From the NCBI RefSeq assembly GCF_003334815.1, contig NZ_QOWO01000057.1: DNA of 13,444 bases. The stretch is one strand, 5' to 3'. Of this stretch, positions 1 through 13,444 are shown piece after piece. This DNA is from Escherichia coli (GTDB taxonomy: Bacteria > Pseudomonadota > Gammaproteobacteria > Enterobacterales > Enterobacteriaceae). The stretch's first letter is position 1, and each line of letters begins with the position of its first letter. The notes beneath the pieces are model-generated. The model was not told the origin of the DNA, ran no database searches, and saw nothing but the letters and a program-made list of their open reading frames with translations. The translations under genes were made by a program, and so were the position numbers.

Positions 1-77
1 AGCTGATAGAAACAGAAGCCACTGGAGCACCTCAAAAACACCATCATACGCTAAATCAGTAAGTTGGCAGCATCACC
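1..77 (-). mobile_element. Terminal 77 nt of an IS1 copy (IRL plus the first codons of insA), with the element body lying off the left edge of the window
   Basis: Reverse complement of 1..77 reads GGTGATGCTGCCAACTTACTGATTTAGCGTATGATGGTGTTTTTGAGGTGCTCCAGTGGCTTCTGTTTCTATCAGCT. From memory this is the canonical IS1 left inverted repeat with one mismatch. On the minus strand, from position 22 downward, it is followed by GTG-GCT-TCT-GTT-TCT-ATC-AGC (M-A-S-V-S-I-S, the InsA N-terminus). The IS1 terminus ...GGTGATGCTGCC abuts host DNA at position 77. Confidence 0.85.
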
Positions 78-898
78 ATATAATTCCATTCACCATTTTT
101 TAATTCAAACAGCTCTGGAAGAGATGACGGTTGCAGAGTCATACGTTTGAGTGGTGCATTTTCATCACCCGGGATAACTTTATATCCCATTTTTGCATGG
201 ATCTCCGCGGTACCGGGATAGGCTTCTATACCAATTATTGGGTCATTACCCAACTCAATATTAGCATTAAGTAATGCGGCAAGGGCGAATCCGGAAGAGT
301 TTGCCACCCCTGAGACAGTCATTATCTGATCAATATAGATATCAATCCTTGGCTGCTCATTGGTCCATCTTTTTGCCTGAGAAGTTGGAAGAGTTGAAAT
401 ATATCCTATCGTGGTTCCGGCGTAACCTGGAACATTGCAACCAGGGCCTAATGTTATTTCATGAACTGTATAGTCCTCAACAGGATCGAAAGGGCTCTTC
501 ATAAATAAATTTAGCCGTAAACCTTCTGCTAATTCTGTAGCAGCATGCGCCTTTTTACATATGCCACCATATATTTCGTCTAAAGCTGAGGTGATTTTCA
601 AGTTTCGATAGAGCATACGTCCTGTTGTTGTAATACCATCGGATTCTCTGCATGCTTCTGTCACATAATTAAATGGCCAAGACTCTTTACTAATATCAAG
701 TTTTCTAATTTCGACAACGCTTTTTCCATCGTAATTATGGTTATTGCCACGAGCAAGAGGCAGAAGATAGATATTTTCCGTATCCAGGCGTGCACGTTCA
801 TATTTACGTGTTAACTCACTGTCGACTTTTGGATGATGAAGGAAGTGATTATCTGTAATAATTTGGCTCTGAAGGGTATTGCTTAATGGCATAGACAT
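56..898 (-). CDS. yjiC: Uncharacterized protein YjiC, whose 3' end is fused to IS1 so that the last six codons and the stop come from the IS1 terminus
   Basis: 280-aa ORF with ATG at 898 and an AAGG box about 8 nt upstream. Its position, divergent from iraD across a long AT-rich region, matches K-12 synteny. The C-terminal ...EWNYM-VMLPTY-stop is read from GGTGATGCTGCCAACTTACTGA, the IS1 inverted repeat, so the native C-terminus is displaced. AT-rich composition. Function unknown. Confidence 0.7.
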   Translation of the reverse strand: MSMPLSNTLQSQIITDNHFLHHPKVDSELTRKYERARLDTENIYLLPLARGNNHNYDGKSVVEIRKLDISKESWPFNYVTEACRESDGITTTGRMLYRNLKITSALDEIYGGICKKAHAATELAEGLRLNLFMKSPFDPVEDYTVHEITLGPGCNVPGYAGTTIGYISTLPTSQAKRWTNEQPRIDIYIDQIMTVSGVANSSGFALAALLNANIELGNDPIIGIEAYPGTAEIHAKMGYKVIPGDENAPLKRMTLQPSSLPELFELKNGEWNYMVMLPTY

Positions 899-1570
899 AA
901 TAGTTACCTTTTATGAGTATTTCACTGATGTTTAGAAAAATAGATAAATTTTTCTGTAGTAAAATGAGAAGTAAACAAATGACATGCATGTTTCTGTTGT
1001 AGTGATATCAACTCTACACGGTGATATTAAAGGGTAGGAAACACTCTAAAGTATCAAAAAACGCTCATTTGAAATTATTTTCATGCAATTTAAAAGCATA
1101 TCTTATTACTAATTGGAATTTGATGTTGCTATATTGATGTCTATATTAATAATGCCTGTGAATGGTATTTTTGATGTATTTGATATGTTATCAATTTATA
1201 TTATTTACAAACTAATTGTTTCAAATAATACATGGCTGATTATGCGGAAATAAATAATTTCACACCGGAATTAAGTAGCGGTGGTGACAAGTATTTTCAT
1301 CTACGTAACTATTCGGAATATTCAGAATATACTAGCGGTTTTTTTTTGAGTTTGATGATTTTTATCAAATCATGACTTTTTTCCTGAAAAGTCAGTAGAT
1401 ATTCATAGGCAAGTAAGGTTTTATACTTTGCTGACAGGATTCAGGCCTGTCTCAGACTGACATGGATGTAATGAACAAAAGGGAATGGCTATGGAAAATG
1501 AGCATCAATACAGTGGTGCCCGGTGTTCAGGGCAAGCCGCATATGTTGCTAAACGTCAGGAGTGCGCAAA
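899..1570. promoter_or_regulatory. Long AT-rich divergent intergenic and control region between yjiC and iraD, expected to hold the iraD promoters
   Basis: About 670 bp without a long ORF, with very high AT content and A/T tracts (for example TTTTTTTTT at 1339-1347). Contains several short inverted repeats: TGACTTTT-N6-AAAAGTCA at 1373..1394, TGATTT-N5-AAATCA near 1355..1371, and AGAAAAAT-N6-ATTTTTCT near 930-955. A strong SD (AGGAG, 1557-1561) precedes the iraD ATG at 1571. Confidence 0.6.
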
Positions 1571-1963
1571 ATGATGCGCCAATCACGTCAGGCTGTTTTA
1601 CCTGAAATTTCAGGCAATAAAACGTCATCGCTGCGTAAATCAATATGTAGCGATCTCCTCACTCTTTTTAATTCTCCTCATTCGGCATTACCGTCATTAC
1701 TTGTTTCAGGCATGCCCGAGTGGCAAGTGCATAACCAGAGCGACAAACATCTCCAGAGCTGGTATTGCCGTCAGCTGCGTTCTGCACTGTTATTTCATGA
1801 GCCACGGATTGCGGCGTTGCAGGTCAATCTGAAAGAAGCGTACAGCCACACGCTGGCGATCAGCCTTGAGATAATGCTGTACCACGACGATGAACCGCTA
1901 ACGTTTGATCTGGTCTGGGATAATGGCGGTTGGCGTAGTGCGACCCTCGAGAATGTCAGCTAA
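1571..1963 (+). CDS. iraD: Anti-adaptor protein IraD, which inhibits RssB-mediated RpoS degradation; a gp25/TssE-like fold family member
   Basis: The ORF-track entry 1562..1963 starts at a GTG. An ATG at 1571 preceded by AGGAG 9 nt upstream gives a 130-aa product [21 protein letters not shown]...[10 protein letters not shown]. This matches my recollection of E. coli IraD in both length and sequence. Confidence 0.85.
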
Positions 1964-2867
1964 GTACAATCTCCAGCTCGCGCAGTTCACGCCAGAAGCG
2001 TTCGGCAACTGGATTCATGCGGGTATTCATTCGGTATGCATAGGCCTGAATCGGGATCACCAGTTCGTCCCGATTCAGTACAACGAGCTGCCCGCTGCGA
2101 ATTTCTTGTTGGATGGCGTACTCCGGCAGCCAGGCAATCCCACAGCCGTCGAGGGCAACCTGCTTTAAAAGCTCGCTCATCGAAGAGACAAAAAAGGTGC
2201 TGAAACTTAACTCACTGTGGCGCGTCAGGGTGCGATTAATCAATCGCCCCATGTAGGAGTTGCGGCTGTAATTCAGTAACGGAAAGTGTGGCTGCGCGAG
2301 GTTAAAAAGTGCTTCTCCGTGTTCGTCACTGGCGCAGACAGGGAACAATTGAGATTCAAATAAGCGAATGTGGTCAAACGGCGCTTCCAGCAAATCTTCG
2401 TCGTGAAAGGAAAAAATACAGTCACTTTGCCCTTCACGCAGTTTATCGACCGCTTCATCGACATCAATAGCTTCAATTGCCCAGGTAAAGAGCGGCGGCA
2501 TCTGGCTGATAATGGACGGTAACAGCCCGAGGGAAAGAGAGTGTGCAGCGGCTATTTTAATTTTGCGTTGCGCGTAATCGCTGCCACCACGGAGTTCTGC
2601 AAGGTTGCTCTCTAACTGTTGCAACAGATGGCGGATCTGCGAATGGAATATTTTACCTTGTTCCGAGAGTTGCAGCGGCGTCACCTGGCGGTTAAACAAT
2701 TCAACGCCAATCGCCTGTTCCAGCGCACGGATGCGGCGGCTGAATGCCGGTTGCGAGACGTTGCGACTGACTGCTGCCTGGGAAAAATTGCGGCATTTTT
2801 CCAGGGTCAGAAAATCATAAAGCCATTTAGTTTCAATATTATGCAAAACCGCACCACAGTCATCCAT
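1956..2867 (-). CDS. hypT: LysR-family transcriptional regulator (HypT/YjiE, hypochlorite-responsive)
   Basis: 303-aa ORF. The N-terminal helix-turn-helix is typical of LysR-type regulators (...[41 protein letters not shown]...) and is followed by a LysR substrate-binding-like region. Its length and its position between iraD and iadA match yjiE/hypT. The 3' end overlaps the iraD 3' end by 8 nt, convergently. Confidence 0.85.
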
Positions 2868-2880
2868 TACGTTTTACTCT

Positions 2881-2925
2881 GTCAGCCGCCCTTGCGGGCA
2901 TTCTACGTCCATTCGGGCGGCTGAC
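2881..2925 (-). terminator. Stable stem-loop between the iadA 3' end and the hypT 5' end: 11-bp perfect stem GTCAGCCGCCC / GGGCGGCTGAC with a 23-nt loop
   Basis: Perfect inverted repeat at 2881-2891 and 2915-2925, lying in the 64-nt gap between the iadA stop (2932) and the hypT start (2867). On the transcribed minus strand no clean U-tract follows it. It may be a partial terminator, an RNA-stabilising hairpin or a protein site rather than a canonical intrinsic terminator. Confidence 0.4.
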
Positions 2926-2931
2926 AACCGT

Positions 2932-4104
2932 TTATGCCGTTTCAAACGTTCCTTTCACGCAGGCTTTGCCGTCTTTGACCATCAGCTTGCCGCGAGCGTA
3001 TACCTGCTCAATGCGTAATTCTGGCGTCATGACCAGTAAGTCTGCGTCATTGCCTGGCAGAATTTCGCCTTTCCCGCTCAGGTTAAGGAAACCGGCTACG
3101 CTACTGGTGAGCGGGCGCAGGGCATCGCTGATACTGAAATCATAATCTTTGACCAGCACCTGCACGGTTTCCAGCAACGTTTCAAAACCGGCAACACCGA
3201 TATGGGTTAAATTCCCTTCGTCATCGAAGAACGGCTGGCTACCGTTGCCGTCGGAGCTGAGGGTGACGCGTGCCAGCGGAATACCCGCCTGAACGGCGCG
3301 GGCAATACCTTCGGCAGGGGCGACTGGTTCGTCAATGCTGCTGGTGATATCGATGGTGCCGCCTTTGCGCGCGAACTCCAGCGCCTGCTCAAACAACGGA
3401 ACGTTGCGGTTAACGTGGGTCGGCAGCAACTTGCTAATCGGCACATCGCAGTTTTCCAGCAGGTCATAGACAGGCTGTAACGCCTTTTTGCTGTCGCCCA
3501 TGTGGAACACGGTGACGCCAGGTTTACCGCCGAGCAAACCGCCAACGCGGGATTCCGCCGCCATATTAGCCAGGTGATAAACGTCCGGTGCGGCAGAACG
3601 GTGATCAGAGATGGCGCATTTCACGCCAATCACGCGATCGATAATCGCCACGTCTTTTTCCACGGAACCCGTAATAGTGCGGGAAGGGACATGATAAGCG
3701 CCGGTCAGCATCCAGGCGCTGATGCCTTCTTCATTGAGCGCACGGGTCTTGGCGAGCAGGGATTCCGGGTGGCGAGAGATAGAGTCGGTGCCCAGCAGAC
3801 CAACCACTGACGTGACGCCTGCTTCCGTCAGACGACTTAACGCCACTTCCGGCGTGCGCGTCGTGGGACCTGCTTCGCCGCCACCGCCAATCAAATGGAC
3901 GTGTTGATCAATAAAACCTGGGCAGAGGATCTGCCCGCTGAGATCGACAACCGTGCAGTCCGGTACAATGTCAGAAGGGATATTACTGGCAACGGCGATA
4001 ATTTTGCCGTTAGCGACGAGGACATCGCAAATTCCCCGATCTTCCGGCGCATACAAATGCGCTCCCTGCAGCAGGGTAAAACCGGCTGCGGTATAATCAA
4101 TCAT
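2932..4104 (-). CDS. iadA: Isoaspartyl dipeptidase (beta-aspartyl dipeptidase) of the amidohydrolase superfamily
   Basis: 390-aa ORF MIDYTAAGFTLLQGAHLYAPEDRGICDVLVANGKIIAV... with metal-binding HxH-type motifs of the amidohydrolase fold (FIDQHVHLIGGGGE). Strong SD (AAGGAG, 5-nt spacer) before the ATG at 4104. Only 12 nt downstream of the yjiG stop. Confidence 0.9.
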   Translation of the reverse strand: MIDYTAAGFTLLQGAHLYAPEDRGICDVLVANGKIIAVASNIPSDIVPDCTVVDLSGQILCPGFIDQHVHLIGGGGEAGPTTRTPEVALSRLTEAGVTSVVGLLGTDSISRHPESLLAKTRALNEEGISAWMLTGAYHVPSRTITGSVEKDVAIIDRVIGVKCAISDHRSAAPDVYHLANMAAESRVGGLLGGKPGVTVFHMGDSKKALQPVYDLLENCDVPISKLLPTHVNRNVPLFEQALEFARKGGTIDITSSIDEPVAPAEGIARAVQAGIPLARVTLSSDGNGSQPFFDDEGNLTHIGVAGFETLLETVQVLVKDYDFSISDALRPLTSSVAGFLNLSGKGEILPGNDADLLVMTPELRIEQVYARGKLMVKDGKACVKGTFETA

Positions 4105-4116
4105 GGTAACTCCTTG

Positions 4117-4578
4117 TTAAACAATAAGCTGCATAACCCAGATCGACAGCAATGCGTTAATCACGCAGACCGTAATGATATGCGGGTAATATTTGGCATT
4201 CACTTCGGCTGTCCCCAGGCAGCGACCGACATTTTGCACCGGGTTGCCCATTAAATACATCGCGGGCAGTAAAACGGTGACATCGTGACCGGTTAATGCG
4301 CCAGCGGTTGCCAGACTGGCGGCAACACCGACTGCGCCACCCATACTCATTAATGCGGCTAAAAGGACGGTTGCCGCTTCACCGGGTAATCCCCACAGCG
4401 CCATTACGGGTTCACAGATATGCCCCACCCAGTCGAGCAGGCCGGTAATTTTCAGCGCCTGAATGATGACAAACGCCATCACCACGTTTGGCAGCAGGTT
4501 GGTCGTGGCGATAGTAAAGCCACGGCGCGCACCATCGATAAACATATCCATGACGTTTTTGCGGACCTGAGTTGTCAT
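4117..4578 (-). CDS. yjiG: Inner-membrane protein YjiG, a SpmB-like half of a nucleoside-recognition (Gate) domain transporter
   Basis: 153-aa hydrophobic ORF. Its ATG overlaps the yjiH stop (ATGA at 4575-4578). Its position between yjiH and iadA matches K-12. Confidence 0.8.
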   Translation of the reverse strand: MTTQVRKNVMDMFIDGARRGFTIATTNLLPNVVMAFVIIQALKITGLLDWVGHICEPVMALWGLPGEAATVLLAALMSMGGAVGVAASLATAGALTGHDVTVLLPAMYLMGNPVQNVGRCLGTAEVNAKYYPHIITVCVINALLSIWVMQLIV

Positions 4579-5258
4579 GCTTGCGCTCCTTGCGTTGGGT
4601 TGCGACGTTCTTCGAAGTTAAGCCAGACGCGCAAAATGTTGGCTCCGACAAATTTAAACACCAGGATGACTGCTAAAGGTACGATTACGGACGTGCCCAG
4701 AAAGGCAAACACCGCGACGCCGGAAGAGAAGTAGTTGGTGATAATGGCGCTACCGCTGGTTTGATATGCGGCGAAAATCACTTTATCGCGTTCGGTAATT
4801 TCACCTTCCTGCGCCAGCTCTTTGGTCATACCTGCGGCGGCATCGGTGTTTTGCAGGTTAGCGATCAGCGCCAGCGAGCAGATCCCTGGAATGCCCAACA
4901 ACGGTTTTAGCACTGGCGTCATTAACTGCTGCGCGGCGCGTAATCCGCCAAGACCATCGGTAATTGAAATAATCCCCAGAGAGAGAATGACTGACGGTGC
5001 CAGCTCCAGCGCAAAGAGAAAGCCATCTTTAGCCCCCGCGCCACCCGCGCCGCGAAACGAGGTGGTGGCTCCGTTCGCACCAGGCAGTTGCCCAAACGAT
5101 CCGTTCAGAACGGAAAAATCAAAAACGCGCCACCAACTGTCTGTCCCGGAAAAAACACCGGAAAAAAAGATTATGGTGAGAAAAAAAGCCAGATACCCTT
5201 TAATGCCCACTTTTTCTGTCGCCAGCTCCCCGGCTACAGCATCCCCTTGTTGTGTCAT
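4575..5258 (-). CDS. yjiH: Inner-membrane protein YjiH, a SpmA-like nucleoside-recognition domain half
   Basis: The ORF track gives 231 aa from an ATG at 5270 with no SD. An ATG at 5258 (MTQQGDAVAG...) has a GGGGA box 5 nt upstream and gives 227 aa, which fits what I recall for YjiH. Hydrophobic; coupled to yjiG. Confidence 0.7.
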   Translation of the reverse strand: MTQQGDAVAGELATEKVGIKGYLAFFLTIIFFSGVFSGTDSWWRVFDFSVLNGSFGQLPGANGATTSFRGAGGAGAKDGFLFALELAPSVILSLGIISITDGLGGLRAAQQLMTPVLKPLLGIPGICSLALIANLQNTDAAAGMTKELAQEGEITERDKVIFAAYQTSGSAIITNYFSSGVAVFAFLGTSVIVPLAVILVFKFVGANILRVWLNFEERRNPTQGAQA

Positions 5259-5299
5259 AACAATCCCCATTGTTTTTTTGTGTTTGTGTGTTGCTTGAG

Positions 5300-5315
5300 C
5301 CAGGAAAATTCCTGG
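5300..5315. promoter_or_regulatory. Perfect 16-bp palindrome CCAGGAAAATTCCTGG in the divergent yjiH/kptA intergenic region; candidate operator
   Basis: Read directly: CCAGGAA-AA-TTCCTGG, a 7-bp inverted repeat with a 2-bp centre, inside the 249-bp region between the yjiH start (5258) and the kptA start (5508). A second small hairpin, CTATGC-GTTTTTT-GCATAG, lies at 5372-5390. Confidence 0.4.
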
Positions 5316-5507
5316 AGCTGAAAAACCTTATCAGCCATGTGGGTATGGGGAAAATGCAAGTATGTTTCTGACTATGCGTTTTTTGCATAGCGGTAAAATT
5401 ACGCTGTGTGGAAAAGGTTCTACGCAGGATTGAGTTGCAGAAAATTCATAAACCCAGTGACAATGACATAGTAAATAAAAAACAGATAATCCAGGGACGA
5501 AAACGCG

Positions 5508-6062
5508 ATGGCAAAGTACAACGAAAAAGAGCTGGCGGATACGAGCAAGTTTTTAAGTTTTGTCCTCCGACACAAACCGGAGGCGATTGGTATCGTACTG
5601 GACCGTGAAGGATGGGCGGATATCGATAAGCTCATACTTTGTGCCCAAAAAGCGGGCAAGCGGTTAACCCGTGCATTGCTGGATACCGTGGTTGCCACCA
5701 GCGATAAAAAGCGTTTTAGTTATTCCAGTGATGGTAGGTGCATCCGCGCGGTTCAGGGGCATTCGACTTCGCAGGTCGCTATTTCCTTTGCCGAAAAAAC
5801 ACCGCCACAGTTTCTCTACCACGGTACGGCAAGCCGTTTCCTTGACGAGATAAAAAAACAGGGGCTGATTGCAGGTGAGCGTCACTACGTACATCTCTCT
5901 GCTGATGAAGCAACGGCACGCAAAGTGGGAGCAAGACACGGATCGCCGGTTATTTTAACCGTCAAAGCACAGGAAATGGCGAAACGAGGCCTCCCTTTCT
6001 GGCAAGCGGAAAACGGGGTCTGGCTGACATCAACGGTTGCGGTCGAATTTCTTGAGTGGTAA
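5508..6062 (+). CDS. kptA: RNA 2'-phosphotransferase KptA, a Tpt1-family enzyme
   Basis: 184-aa [46 protein letters not shown]... with conserved Tpt1/KptA catalytic-region residues (R..H..R pattern: VLRHKPE, VQGHS, YHGT, VHLS). The 3' end overlaps the yjiJ 3' end by 33 nt. Confidence 0.9.
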
Positions 6063-7253
6063 GGGAAACACTCCCCATGAAGTGACCACTTGCAGCTTAA
6101 ATAATTGTACTGTGCTGATAAGCGCAGCAATAAACAACGCCGCCGCGCCGCAGAGAGTGGCGCCGGCAAGCGCCGATGTTCCATTGCCGAGCATACTGGT
6201 CAGCGCCGGGCCGAGGATTTGTCCAATGCCGTAAATGAGCGTCACAAAGCCTAAAAGATTGAGATTTCCCGGTACGCTCAGTTGGCGGGCGATAGTCATC
6301 ACCAGAGATGTCGTGCCCATAAAGGTACCGCCAAAACCAAGACTGCTGATGATAAGCAAGAGAGGCGAGTCGCTGGCGAGAGTAAGCAGCACACAGATAG
6401 CCTGCACCAGCAAATTCGCCGTCAGGCAGGGCAAAGCCCCCCAACGTTTTGCTGCCCATAGCCAGCCAAAGCAACCAGGCACAATTGATAAGCCGACTAA
6501 CGTCCAGAGATGGGCGGTTAACAATGGTGAGCCTGCATCTTTCGCCATGAGCGGCAGGTAAGTCGCGACGATGATATAACCAAATCCCGCCAGGCCGTAC
6601 AGAATAGCCAGTAACCACCAGCTCATTATCTGTTGCTCCGTTTTTGCCAATGGCATTGGTGTGATGGCGTGTTTTTTCGAGGGCATTAAAAGCGTAAGTG
6701 CAATCAGCATCATGCCAGAAAGCGCCCCGGCGCCTTGCCATAACGTTTGCGAGGAGAGGTCAAAATGCAGGCCTGCCAGAACATATTCATTGCCCAGTGC
6801 GATGCCAATGCCAACGCCAGAAAACAAAGCTGCCAGCACAAAAGGATGGCGCGTGTGCTGCATAATCAGCGTCGAACCAAAAATCAGCATACCGGCGCTG
6901 GCGACACCCGCCAGGACGCGAATCAATAACACCAGAATAAATGGCAGCAACCATGCCATTGCGAGGATCAACAACCCGCTCGCCAGGGCAGAAGCCAACA
7001 GAAATGGGCGCAGGCGCGATGGCTGGTGAAATGCGCCAAACGAAAATAGCAGACTGCCAGCCAGATACCCCGCATAGTTGCCGCTGGCAATCCACGAGAG
7101 CTGGCTAAATGAAAACGATCCTTCCGCCATCATGACGGGCAACATAGGCGTATAAAGGAAGCGGCCTAAACCCATACCTAAGGTCAGAACCAGCATCCCG
7201 AAAAGCGCGGTGCTGAAAGAAAAGCGTTCTACGGGATGCGAGGGCGAAGGCAT
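6030..7253 (-). CDS. yjiJ: Major-facilitator-type inner-membrane transporter YjiJ (DUF1228/MFS-like)
   Basis: 407-aa ORF with about 12 predicted hydrophobic helices. ATG at 7253 with an AAGG box 6 nt upstream. Convergent overlap with kptA (6030..6062). The exact start is uncertain, since the K-12 product may be shorter. Confidence 0.75.
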
Positions 7254-7277
7254 GTTTAACCTTGTTTGTCATTTTTG

Positions 7278-7298
7278 TTGTTAACAAGTTAATAACAA
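7278..7298. promoter_or_regulatory. Overlapping palindromes TTGTTAACAA / TTGTTA-N9-TAACAA in the yjiJ upstream region
   Basis: The perfect 10-bp palindrome TTGTTAACAA at 7278-7287 is extended to TTGTTAACAAGTTAATAACAA. It sits in the 67-nt gap between the yjiK stop and the yjiJ start, 25-45 nt upstream of the yjiJ ATG. Confidence 0.3.
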
Positions 7299-7320
7299 AA
7301 AGGTGAAACATGCCAGCCTG

Positions 7321-10428
<3,108 letters not shown>

Positions 10429-10543
10429 GATTTTCCTTCCCCGTACCACGGGAGATAATGAAAAGAGGCCACATTATTACCATTCTTTTAGTGTGGTTTA
10501 TTTGATCTCTCTCGCGGTTAGCCACTTAGTTTTTCATGGATTT

Positions 10544-11824
10544 CTAAAAATTGCTGAGGGGGAATAAGGCCGGGAGCTGCGACAGCAAATACAAAATTAG
10601 CCCAATACAACCGCCGACCAGCGTACCGTTGACACGGATAAACTGCAGATCTTTGCCGATATTTAACTCTATTTGCCGCGACATATCCCGCGCATCCCAG
10701 CTTTTTACCGTATCGCTGATGTGGCGCGTCAGGAATGCGGAAAACTCAGGCGCGACGCGGTGCGCGGCTTGTTCCAGGTGACCATTTAACGACGCCCGCA
10801 AGGCATCATCGGCAATTAACGTTTCGCCAAACCATTGACCCGCCCGCGCGATACGTTCTTTCACACGAGAATCTTCACTGTCGATATCCGCTTTCAGCCA
10901 TTCCCGTAAATCCCCCCACAATTCACTGAGATAGCGGTTAAAAGCTTCATCTTCTTTCAGATAACTTTTTACGGCATCGGCTCGCGCTGCCATTTCCGGA
11001 TCGTTTTTCAACTTGTCGATCAGGGCAAAAGTGGCGCGATCAAACGCATGGCGGATCTGATGTACACGATCGCGGCTGATATCATCAAGCAAAGAATTCA
11101 CCGCGTCAGAAACCAACTCCGCGCTATGTTCGCCCAGCCATTCAGTAGGCAAAATTTTGGCTTTCAGCGGATGCTCGCTCTCCAGCCAGCGAACAATTTG
11201 CTGGGCAATAAACTTGCGCGATTTATCGCGCTGGAGAAGAGCAATCAACTGCGCGATCAGCGTATCCAGCAGCACCTGATGACGATCGTTTTTGGTCATA
11301 CTCTCCAGCATCAACGCACTGGTGCCGGAAAGATCGATCTTATCAATCGCCCGATGGACTGCGCGCTTAAGCAGGCGCTGAATACGCGCATCATCGGTCA
11401 GTTCAAGAAAACCACTCATGATCTGCAACAGATGCTGACCAACGCGGCGGGCGTTTTCTGGCTGACTAAACCAGTTGCCAATCAACAACACCGGTTCGTG
11501 ACGTCGAATCAATGCCACCAGCGATTGGGTATCGAGAAATTTTTCCTGCACGAACTGACCGAGATTTTCGCCAATCCGGTCTTTATTACGCGGGATAATC
11601 GCCGTATGACGAGAAATGATCGGAATCGGCACGCGGCGAAACAGCGCCACCACCGCAAACCAGTCTGCCAGCGCGCCGACCATCGCCGCTTCAGCAATCG
11701 CCTTCACTCCGCTCACCCAAAAATTGGGTGGCAAAAACAGCGTAACGACAAAGGTAGCAGCGGCGATAAGCAGTAAAGAGAGCGCCAACATTTTGGCGCG
11801 TCTGAGTTCAATGAGTTTATTCAT
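10544..11824 (-). CDS. yjiN: Inner-membrane protein YjiN (DUF445 family)
   Basis: 426-aa ORF with an N-terminal TM helix ([19 protein letters not shown]), a long helical charged middle and a C-terminal hydrophobic segment. Position between mdtM and yjiM matches K-12. Confidence 0.75.
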
Positions 11825-11864
11825 AATGTTAAGAATAGAGCCTGACGGCAGGATCGCGCAAAAA

Positions 11865-13097
11865 TCACCGCTCCTCCGCCAGCTCGGCAGCCTGATGTTG
11901 GCGCACGCGATTAAGCAATCCCGCCAGGGTGAAAACGACGATAAGGCCCGCCACGACGGCTAACAGATGAAACGGCAAGCGACCGCCGTTAAACCACAGC
12001 CAGCGGCCGATTTCGACCGAGACAGACATCACCATCAGGATCACCATATTCAGCGATGCGGAGACGGTCCCTTTCGGTAAGTTATTGGAAAACAGCGTAA
12101 AGCGGAATAAGGTCGGGATAATCAAACCAATCCCGAAAGCATACAGACTGGTGCCCAGCACCGACCACAGCCAGACGTGCGGTGACAGCAGATTGCCGAT
12201 AATCAACAGCGCGAGGCCAACCAGTTGAATGGGTACGGCACGCCAGATAAAGCGCGGTTCGGTCGGATCTTTAACGAAACGCGCCACGATGGCATTCGCG
12301 ACAATCACCGCGCCGAATACCGGAACCTGTGTCCAGGCGAACTGCGAGGTCGTTAAGCCGCCTGCGTCAATCAGGATCACCGGCGAGACAGCCACCCAGC
12401 TCATCATTGGGATATAGCTTAAAGAGATGGTTGCTGCACCAAAGAGGAACAGCCGATTGCAAAAGACATTACGAAAATCGCGCAAGACGCTTTTGGCGCT
12501 AAATGAAACCGCGCCGCGCTTCACCGTCTCTGGCATCGCCAGCAGTAAGCCAACAAATGAGATAAAACCCATAATCGCAATGATGGCAAAAAGGACTTTC
12601 CAGTGTACAAAGTGCATCAGAGCTGCGCCGGAAAGCGGGCCGATAATCGGCGCAATCAGTACGATGGAGGTGATAATCGCCATCAACCTGATCCCTTTTG
12701 TCTGGCCGAACGCCTCCTGCACCGTGACATAACCAACGGTGGCAATAAAACAGATACTGGTGCCCTGAATTGCACGCGCGATAAGAAACTGTGTCATAGA
12801 CGTTGTGAACATTGTCGCAGCGCAGGCAAGGGTAAATATTAGCGCCCCGGTAATCAGCACCGGCCTGCGGCCAATCCTGTCGGAAAGCGGCCCCAGCAGC
12901 CACTGTAACGCCATACCGCCCGCGAGATAGAGACTGACGGCTGCCGGGGCCAGACTGACATCGGCATTAAAATCACGGACCACATTAATGATCCCCGGCT
13001 GAATCAGGTCCGTCGACAGGTACGCGGCAAAATCATACAAAATCAACGCCATCGGGAAAAACAGCGTGGCGGCATGGCGGGCAAAAAAACGTGGCAT
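11865..13097 (-). CDS. mdtM: Multidrug efflux MFS transporter MdtM (YjiO), a 12-TM drug:H+ antiporter
   Basis: The ORF track extends to 13196 (443 aa). An ATG at 13097 preceded by AAGGAG (8 nt) gives [35 protein letters not shown]... (410 aa), which matches what I recall of MdtM. MFS signature [13 protein letters not shown] present. Confidence 0.85.
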
Positions 13098-13256
13098 AAC
13101 AAACAACTCCTTGTCCGGAGAACCCCAACGGGCAAAACGAAATTCAATACCGTCGGTAATGACGAAAGGCAGGCGAGAAGGGCAACGAGACTGCAAATGT
13201 ACTGAATTTCATGTAATCAACCACACTGCCTGTGAACACACCGACAGAGAAATACC

Positions 13257-13275
13257 TTCTGACTCCAGGTCAGAA
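13257..13275. promoter_or_regulatory. Inverted repeat TTCTGAC-TCCAG-GTCAGAA in the mdtM upstream region
   Basis: 7-bp perfect arms with a 5-bp spacer, 160-180 nt upstream of the mdtM ATG and about 95 nt before the IS1 terminus. Candidate regulator site or small hairpin. Confidence 0.25.
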
Positions 13276-13367
13276 TGTATAACGATTACAAATAGTCATC
13301 AGCACATTACACCTCTTTAATTGATGGCTTGCATAGAAAATATACACCTTAAGTGTAATTAAAATTT

Positions 13368-13444
13368 GGTAATGCTGCCAACTTACTGATTTAGTGTATG
13401 ATGGTGATTTTAAGGTGCTTGCGTGGCTTCCATTTCCATCAGAT
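13368..13444 (+). mobile_element. Left end (IRL plus the first insA codons) of a divergent IS1-family isoform; the body continues beyond the right edge of the window
   Basis: 13368.. reads GGTAATGCTGCCAACTTACTGATTTAGTGTATGATGGTGATTTTAAGGTGCTTGCGTGGCTTCCATTTCCATCAGAT, which I count as 66/77 identical to the reverse complement of 1..77. GTG at 13423 opens GTG-GCT-TCC-ATT-TCC-ATC (M-A-S-I-S-I...), the InsA N-terminus variant seen in divergent IS1 isoforms. Confidence 0.8.

Follow-up and report, generated by a model that had tools for sequence, protein, structure and literature searches.

Do the two IS1 elements that face away from each other around the Escherichia coli yjiC-mdtM genes make the DNA between them a mobile or invertible unit, or do they bound it independently of each other? 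The question is raised by contig NZ_QOWO01000057.1 (assembly GCF_003334815.1), a short-read contig of 13,444 nt that was analysed over its whole length and is called the window here. Only 77 nt of each IS1, an insertion sequence (IS), lie inside it. We consider it very probable that the window holds a native 13.3-kb yjiC-mdtM piece bounded by two unrelated full-length IS1 copies. The copies are in inverted orientation and show no sign of cooperation.

The comparison panel consisted of 5426 complete E. coli genomes, which were queried with the window, with its junctions and with synthetic hybrid sequences; genome counts given below refer to this panel. At least 80% of the window was covered in one place by 4936 of the genomes and, IS1 ends aside, the best matches all lay at the yjiC-mdtM locus. 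The best full-window match, CE0021a (NZ_CP119006.1), covered 100% of the window with 5 single-nucleotide polymorphisms (SNPs) over 13,444 bases. It was used as the main closed reference, and its locus is labelled L001. The IS1 references were the IS1A copy of MG1655 at 19796-20563 and its IS1F copy at 4518472-4519239, which adjoins fecI.

Two IS1 subtypes with their insA ends inward

The reverse complement of window positions 1..77 opens with GGTGATGCTGCCAACTTACTGAT and reads GGTGATGCTGCCAACTTACTGATTTAGCGTATGATGG...GTGGCTTCTGTTTCTATCAGCT, and positions 13368..13444 open with GGTAATGCTGCCAACTTACTGAT and read GGTAATGCTGCCAACTTACTGATTTAGTGTATGATGG...GTGGCTTCCATTTCCATCAGAT. The two stubs are identical at 66 of 77 positions, the same count that a first-pass annotation of this DNA had given. 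The GTG start codon of insA is element position 56 in both, and translation from it predicted InsA N-termini of (M/V)ASVSIS on the left and (M/V)ASISIR on the right, in agreement with the MASVSIS and MASISI read earlier. An identity below about 80% to IS1 references had been named beforehand as the result that would speak against IS1; alignment gave 76/77 to IS1A for the left stub (one difference) and 77/77 to IS1F for the right stub. Annotated IS1 ends in other genomes matched over 77–81 nt with E-values near 1e-31, and the IS1 identity of the stubs is therefore not a matter of chance.

Window 77..1, minus strand: IS1A-type left end, comprising the left inverted repeat (IRL), the insA promoter region and the first 7 insA codons; the remainder lies left of the window
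Window 13368..13444, plus strand: IS1F-type left end, comprising IRL, the insA promoter region and the first 7 insA codons; the remainder lies right of the window
CE0021a L001 5310-6077, 768 bp: full IS1A-type copy, annotated by PGAP as 'IS1-like element IS1A family transposase', with a programmed frameshift
CE0021a L001 19368-20135, 768 bp: full IS1F-type copy, annotated as 'IS1 family transposase, programmed frameshift'

The two elements point apart, and it is their IRL/insA ends that adjoin the yjiC-mdtM segment; both the stubs and CE0021a gave the coordinates and the orientation that the first-pass annotation had described. It had also called for extension on both sides, and closed genomes were found to carry two full 768-bp IS1 copies exactly at the two junctions, with a target site duplication (TSD) at the left copy and none at the right. 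In CE0021a, the left copy matched K-12 IS1A at 764/768 positions (4 differences) and the right copy matched K-12 IS1F at 764/768 (4 differences; 99.5%). The terminal inverted repeats agree at 18/23 positions on the left and 20/23 on the right. Both copies encode a 91-aa InsA, carry an A6C frameshift site (position 307 in the left copy) and have an open 232-aa InsAB' frame, so that in length, terminal repeats and insA/insB' organization with A6C frameshift both conform to the IS1 family. The right inverted repeats (IRR) and InsAB' frames of both are intact.

Left and right copies differed from each other at 70 positions (90.9% identity), in agreement with the 73 positions at which IS1F is reported to depart from the IS1 consensus, IS1A (PMC12428005). 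This difference in type, together with the TSD at one copy only, bears out the earlier view that the ends are separate insertions of distinct isoforms. The left element resembles IS1A of MG1655, the 'consensus' IS1, in its 768 bp, 18/23 repeats, insA, A6C site, 232-aa InsAB' and 9-bp duplication, and differs from it by 4 bases and by its site, the 3' end of yjiC, where MG1655 has no insertion. The right element resembles the divergent IS1F of MG1655 in its 768 bp, an identical first 77 nt and some 70–73 differences from IS1A; unlike that copy, it has an open InsAB', lies at the boundary of mdtM and the immigration control region (ICR) and lacks a target duplication. A TGG-to-TAG nonsense change that cuts InsAB' at residue 162 (alignment column 542) is common to MG1655 IS1F and the ICR IS1F of sequence type 131 (ST131; L003 3473-4240). 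In the IS1F of the window's lineage TGG is kept at that codon, and the 232-aa frame is open.

Neither junction was present in MG1655 by annotation and alignment, as the first-pass annotation had stated. Its further statement that the junctions are strain-specific did not hold, because the exact yjiC|IS1A junction was found in 242 genomes (including SE15, enterotoxigenic strain H10407 and ML35) and the exact mdtM-upstream|IS1F junction in 448 (including NCTC86). Both junctions, spanning positions 1-13444, occurred together in about two dozen of the best 30 full-window matches; strain D2 was the only overlap between the first 40 left-junction and the first 60 right-junction matches listed. In SE15, whose genome was sequenced in 2010, the yjiC copy of IS1A is present as well, together with an IS1F at the ICR that has another inner junction. 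Exact 32-mers across each junction had no match among the GTDB species representatives, which include only one E. coli genome, and a literature search for this locus with IS1 returned only general papers on the ICR and on IS elements. Both copies are old polymorphisms common to many lineages, and both insertions are already known in the sense that they are annotated in hundreds of public genomes, SE15 and H10407 among them.

The left insertion and the native segment

On both sides of the IS1A copy lies the 9-bp duplication ATATAATTC, within the 8–9 bp that IS1 duplicates in its mainly replicative transposition (PMC12428005). K-12 has ATATAATTC once, at 4555500-4555508, in the 3'-terminal part of yjiC. 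As a simple insertion with a canonical 9-bp duplication, the left copy goes back to one ordinary transposition of an IS1A-type element into the last yjiC codons. The yjiC open reading frame now extends 22 nt into IS1 and has its stop codon inside the element. The predicted protein ends in ...NGEWNYMVMLPTY vs ...NGEWNYIGK in K-12, the last 3 residues being exchanged for 7 that are encoded by the IS.

Window 78..86: inner copy of the duplication ATATAATTC; the outer copy abuts IRR at CE0021a L001 5301-5309
Window 56..898, minus strand: yjiC, encoding a 280-aa DUF2686 protein; its 3' end is rewritten by IS1A
Window 87..13367: native core from yjiC to mdtM with 270 bp of K-12-like mdtM upstream DNA, in a single collinear alignment
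Window 11865..13097, minus strand: mdtM, the last gene before the right IS1, transcribed away from it

The 242 left-junction matches were all at least 99% identical. CE0021a and SE15 were near-identical over the 6.5 kb gntP-uxuR-IS1A, after which identical blocks alternate with blocks of about 3% divergence. Because of these two observations, the pattern fits a single old IS1A insertion that may have spread by descent and recombination. In several left-junction genomes the junction was the sole match to the query, which suggests that the yjiC copy is their only IS1A-type copy. Compared window by window, CE0021a and SE15 (L009) differed at 0–2 positions per 500 bp over most of the 25 kb compared. 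The yjiC-iraD and yjiM-mdtM blocks (window 501-2500 and 9501-12500; L001 6501-8500 and 15501-18500) had 5–25 differences per 500 bp. As judged from these alignments, the block pattern is a putative recombination mosaic around the ICR, a region where recombination is reportedly high according to Milkman and Raleigh.

The core aligned collinearly with MG1655 4555496-4568790 at 97.3% identity, and no IS1 homology was found inside positions 87..13367. The gene content between the two elements was confirmed by the annotation of CE0021a, which lists yjiC, ytiD, idlP, iraD, hypT, iadA, yjiG, yjiH, kptA, yjiJ, yjiK, ytiA, yjiL, yjiM, yjiN and mdtM. The core is ordinary native E. coli chromosome and lies where it normally does, between uxuR and the ICR. 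In several genomes (e.g. NZ_CP103694.1 3933050-3947268) the whole window was matched as two pieces whose joint span exceeded the query by about 90 to 775 bp; this implies additional small insertions inside the yjiC-mdtM segment, possibly of another IS.

The IS1F copy at the immigration control region

The right copy is flanked by TTAAAATTT on the IRL side and CGACAGCGA on the IRR side, so that an 8–9-bp target duplication is absent. The missing TSD points to a rearrangement after insertion and is no argument against IS1 identity.

Window 13359..13367: TTAAAATTT, which abuts the IRL of IS1F on the left; K-12 homology breaks off here

Past this breakpoint K-12 continues with ...AAAATTTGCGGTTAATC, and the outer flank of IS1F is CGACAGCGAGG. 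Homology to K-12 ends at 4568790, between ytiE and rpnD, and is picked up again exactly at the yjiA stop codon. IS1F and brnTA thus stand in place of 19.1 kb of K-12 DNA between mdtM and yjiA; the replaced block, which comprises rpnD, yjiR-V, mcrBC, symE, hsdRMS and mrr, is the ICR. Loss or IS remodelling of the ICR has been described in some strains (PMC3032704). The distance from the mdtM start codon to the IRL of IS1F is 270 bp; IS1 fusion promoters are catalogued in PMC9330008, and an IS1-derived promoter was considered as a possible influence on mdtM.

The order mdtM...IS1F-brnTA was found in one place in at least 1005 of the genomes, against only 448 with the IRL junction of the window. 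Genomes of the ST131/SE15 type share the IRR|brnT junction and differ at the IRL, next to which they have a 263-nt copy of the yghX-3'/yghW-5' region. In ECE313, which has an IS-free ICR allele, the base that directly follows the IRR of IS1F is exactly where homology on the brnT side sets in.

In ST131 strain 2822 (L003 3210-3472) and SE15 (L009 30097-30393), a second yghX/yghW copy fills the 263 nt that separate IS1F from mdtM codon 8; it is 96–98% identical to the 3' end of yghX, the yghX-yghW intergenic region and the first yghW codons (MG1655 source, L010 ~360-650); the region was present at its own locus in 5418 genomes. The mdtM product of this type begins MAGLKAT... vs MPRFF(T/A)R..., and the join lies at a CGGCATG microhomology. 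From the alignments, the arrangement looks like a promoter and N-terminus swap beside the IRL of IS1F. The brnT gene is frameshifted in CE0021a (L001 20319-20595) and is an intact 288-bp gene in ST131, SE15 and ECE313; brnA is intact in all four.

How did the right junction arise? We lean toward an IS1-promoted adjacent deletion. IS1F would first have inserted just upstream of brnT, and its IRL end would then have promoted, by intramolecular replicative transposition, a deletion that reached the region upstream of mdtM. The IRR|brnT junction would have stayed fixed while a new IRL junction was created. One constant junction, a variable junction at the other end and the absence of a TSD are what argue for such an event, and they are found here: IRR|brnT is common to the at least 1005 genomes with two IRL flanks, no TSD is present, the 19.1 kb of K-12 DNA is absent and the IS-free homology starts at IRR. 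IS copies without a TSD usually result from adjacent deletion or from recombination between IS copies (PMC11708052). The latter process likewise leaves a single IS without a duplication, and IS1F-type copies occupy many chromosomal sites; two direct IS1F copies, one upstream of mdtM and one upstream of brnT, could thus have recombined and deleted the ICR between them. We consider this origin rather unlikely. The precursor that it calls for, IS1F-IRR|TTAAAATTT|rpnD-side DNA, was found in 0 of the genomes, and ST131-type genomes, in which the shared IRR|brnT junction goes with a second IRL flank unrelated to the first, are explained more economically by repeated events at one end.

Adjacent deletion at the IRL end may also have a wider reach, which we put forward tentatively and hold to be possible. 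The IS1F at the mdtM edge may have been the agent that erased the whole ICR (hsdRMS, mcrBC and mrr) in about one fifth of sequenced E. coli, through repeated IRL-end rearrangements with at least two outcomes. These would be the K-12-like mdtM upstream junction seen in the window and the joining of a yghX/yghW fragment onto mdtM seen in ST131-type genomes. If this is true, the right IS1 would be the scar of a loss of restriction systems, with possible effects on mdtM expression.

No evidence of joint action of the two copies

The first-pass annotation had allowed that the pair might act as a composite element if the outside ends were intact, and that inverted IS1 copies can drive inversion of the whole segment. 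The outside ends are indeed intact, with transposase, in CE0021a; this property is necessary and not sufficient for a composite transposon. Inverted IS1 arms are known from composite transposons such as Tn1681, and the full-length arms, intact terminal repeats, open InsAB' frames and outward IRR ends seen here would suit a 14.8-kb IS1A-core-IS1F unit that mobilises mdtM and its neighbours. It is nevertheless very improbable that the pair is, or arrived as, such a transposon. ATATAATTC and CGACAGCGA, the outer flanks, show no relation to each other in either orientation and form no duplication around a whole unit; the left arm is flanked by a duplication of its own. The core was always at uxuR-yjiC...mdtM-ICR, a single location collinear with K-12, and a search of a plasmid collection with the core gave no IS1-bounded copy. 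With no whole-unit duplication and a native collinear cargo, the composite-transposon origin was rejected.

Inversion of the yjiC-mdtM block by homologous recombination between the copies is just as improbable, although 768-bp inverted repeats lie 13.3 kb apart and chromosomal inversions are known to arise by recombination between IS copies in inverted orientation. The arms are only 90.9% identical, and a repeat divergence of about 9% strongly reduces the homologous recombination that RecA and MutS permit. The junction expected after inversion was represented by a query of 500 bp of uxuR flank, IS1 and 500 bp of reversed mdtM upstream DNA; none of the 5426 genomes matched it at a threshold of 80% coverage, and the best matches ended at the IS1 boundary (72%). 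The segment was thus seen in one orientation among the genomes, and of the genome comparison that had been proposed, the presence or absence of each junction gave positive results and the search for inversions did not. With the outside ends intact, inversion and composite-element behaviour are both possible in principle.

Least probable of all is that the stubs are chimeric assembly artefacts and not real junctions. Both are exactly 77 nt long, a typical de Bruijn k-mer length. However, closed genomes hold the exact junctions continuous with full IS1, CE0021a doing so with complete coverage of the window and only the 5 SNPs, and the junctions recur in the 242 and 448 further genomes. De Bruijn assemblers end contigs at repeats, running k bases into them, and k=77 is a common top k-mer; in the closest closed genome there are about ten further IS1 matches. 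This suggests that the 77-nt stubs result from a k=77 assembly break at repeats. The two IS1 subtypes break short-read assemblies here, and the bracket defines a contig and not a mobile unit.

Some observations weigh against the account of two unrelated copies, the right one reshaped by adjacent deletion. The outer parts of the IS1 copies were read from near-identical closed genomes and not from the window's own genome, and the k=77 explanation of the stubs is circumstantial. No genome was found with an IS1F that bears a CGACAGCGA duplication before an otherwise intact ICR, a search made with the ECE313-type left flank only; this ECE313-based hybrid query matched only in strain Ec-91, at an unrelated IS1 insertion some 200 bp from the site. 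Different backgrounds could also have acquired the junction through homologous exchange of entire ICR alleles. Finally, the absence of the inversion from all 5426 assemblies is still compatible with inversion that is rare or transient.

The IS1 of Ec-91 (NZ_CM192146.1; L011 ~4326-5093) is a separate element about 200 bp right of the IS1F site, in the 5' part of brnT, and the strain keeps a type I restriction-modification system and a restriction endonuclease gene left of it. The brnT upstream region has therefore been struck by IS1 more than once.

The search of the plasmid collection with the core returned 'plasmid' records of chromosome size, which are mislabelled chromosomal ones, as well as distant homologues from Klebsiella/Citrobacter and a single record of 22 kb. 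The latter, RCS63_p (NZ_LT985269.1, 22.3 kb, typed as mobilizable; L005 3638-19554), carries ISEcp1-blaCTX-M-14, then a 13.2-kb segment, then strAB-sul2. The 13.2 kb are collinear with L001 8201-21378, from inside hypT through mdtM-IS1F-brnTA to inside yjiA. This arrangement points to ISEcp1 read-through mobilisation or to a misassembled or mislabelled chromosomal fragment, and not to the IS1 pair.

Relation to known systems

Two full IS1 copies that bracket DNA are a feature of Tn1681 and Tn9-type elements, which are IS1 composite transposons, and the inverted arms resemble those of Tn1681. Unlike these transposons, the copies described here are separately acquired isoforms, have no flanking duplication, enclose native core cargo and have no second location. 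A closer parallel for the right element is offered by IS-promoted adjacent deletions, in which the IS is kept, one junction is conserved, the other is joined to new DNA, no TSD is present and a large block is missing. IS1 reportedly promoted such deletions at gal in the work of Reif and Saedler in 1975. The present case differs from the classic ones in that the deletion would be read from natural alleles without a before-and-after pair.

Sibley and Raleigh reportedly described the ICR in 2004 as a hypervariable locus with mdtM/yjiO on one side and yjiA on the other. Its mdtM-side edge is marked by the right IS1, in a lineage without hsdRMS, mcrBC and mrr. In the window's lineage the content is minimal, consisting of IS1F, brnT (with the CE0021a frameshift) and brnA. 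The restriction-less strains W and Crooks also lack these ICR systems, and Crooks has been described as 'changed by IS element insertions' (PMC3032704).

In itself the finding matters little, IS1A and IS1F being textbook elements. The right IS1F marks a minimal restriction-less ICR allele; this allele is a useful lineage marker and may bear on how readily such strains take up foreign DNA.

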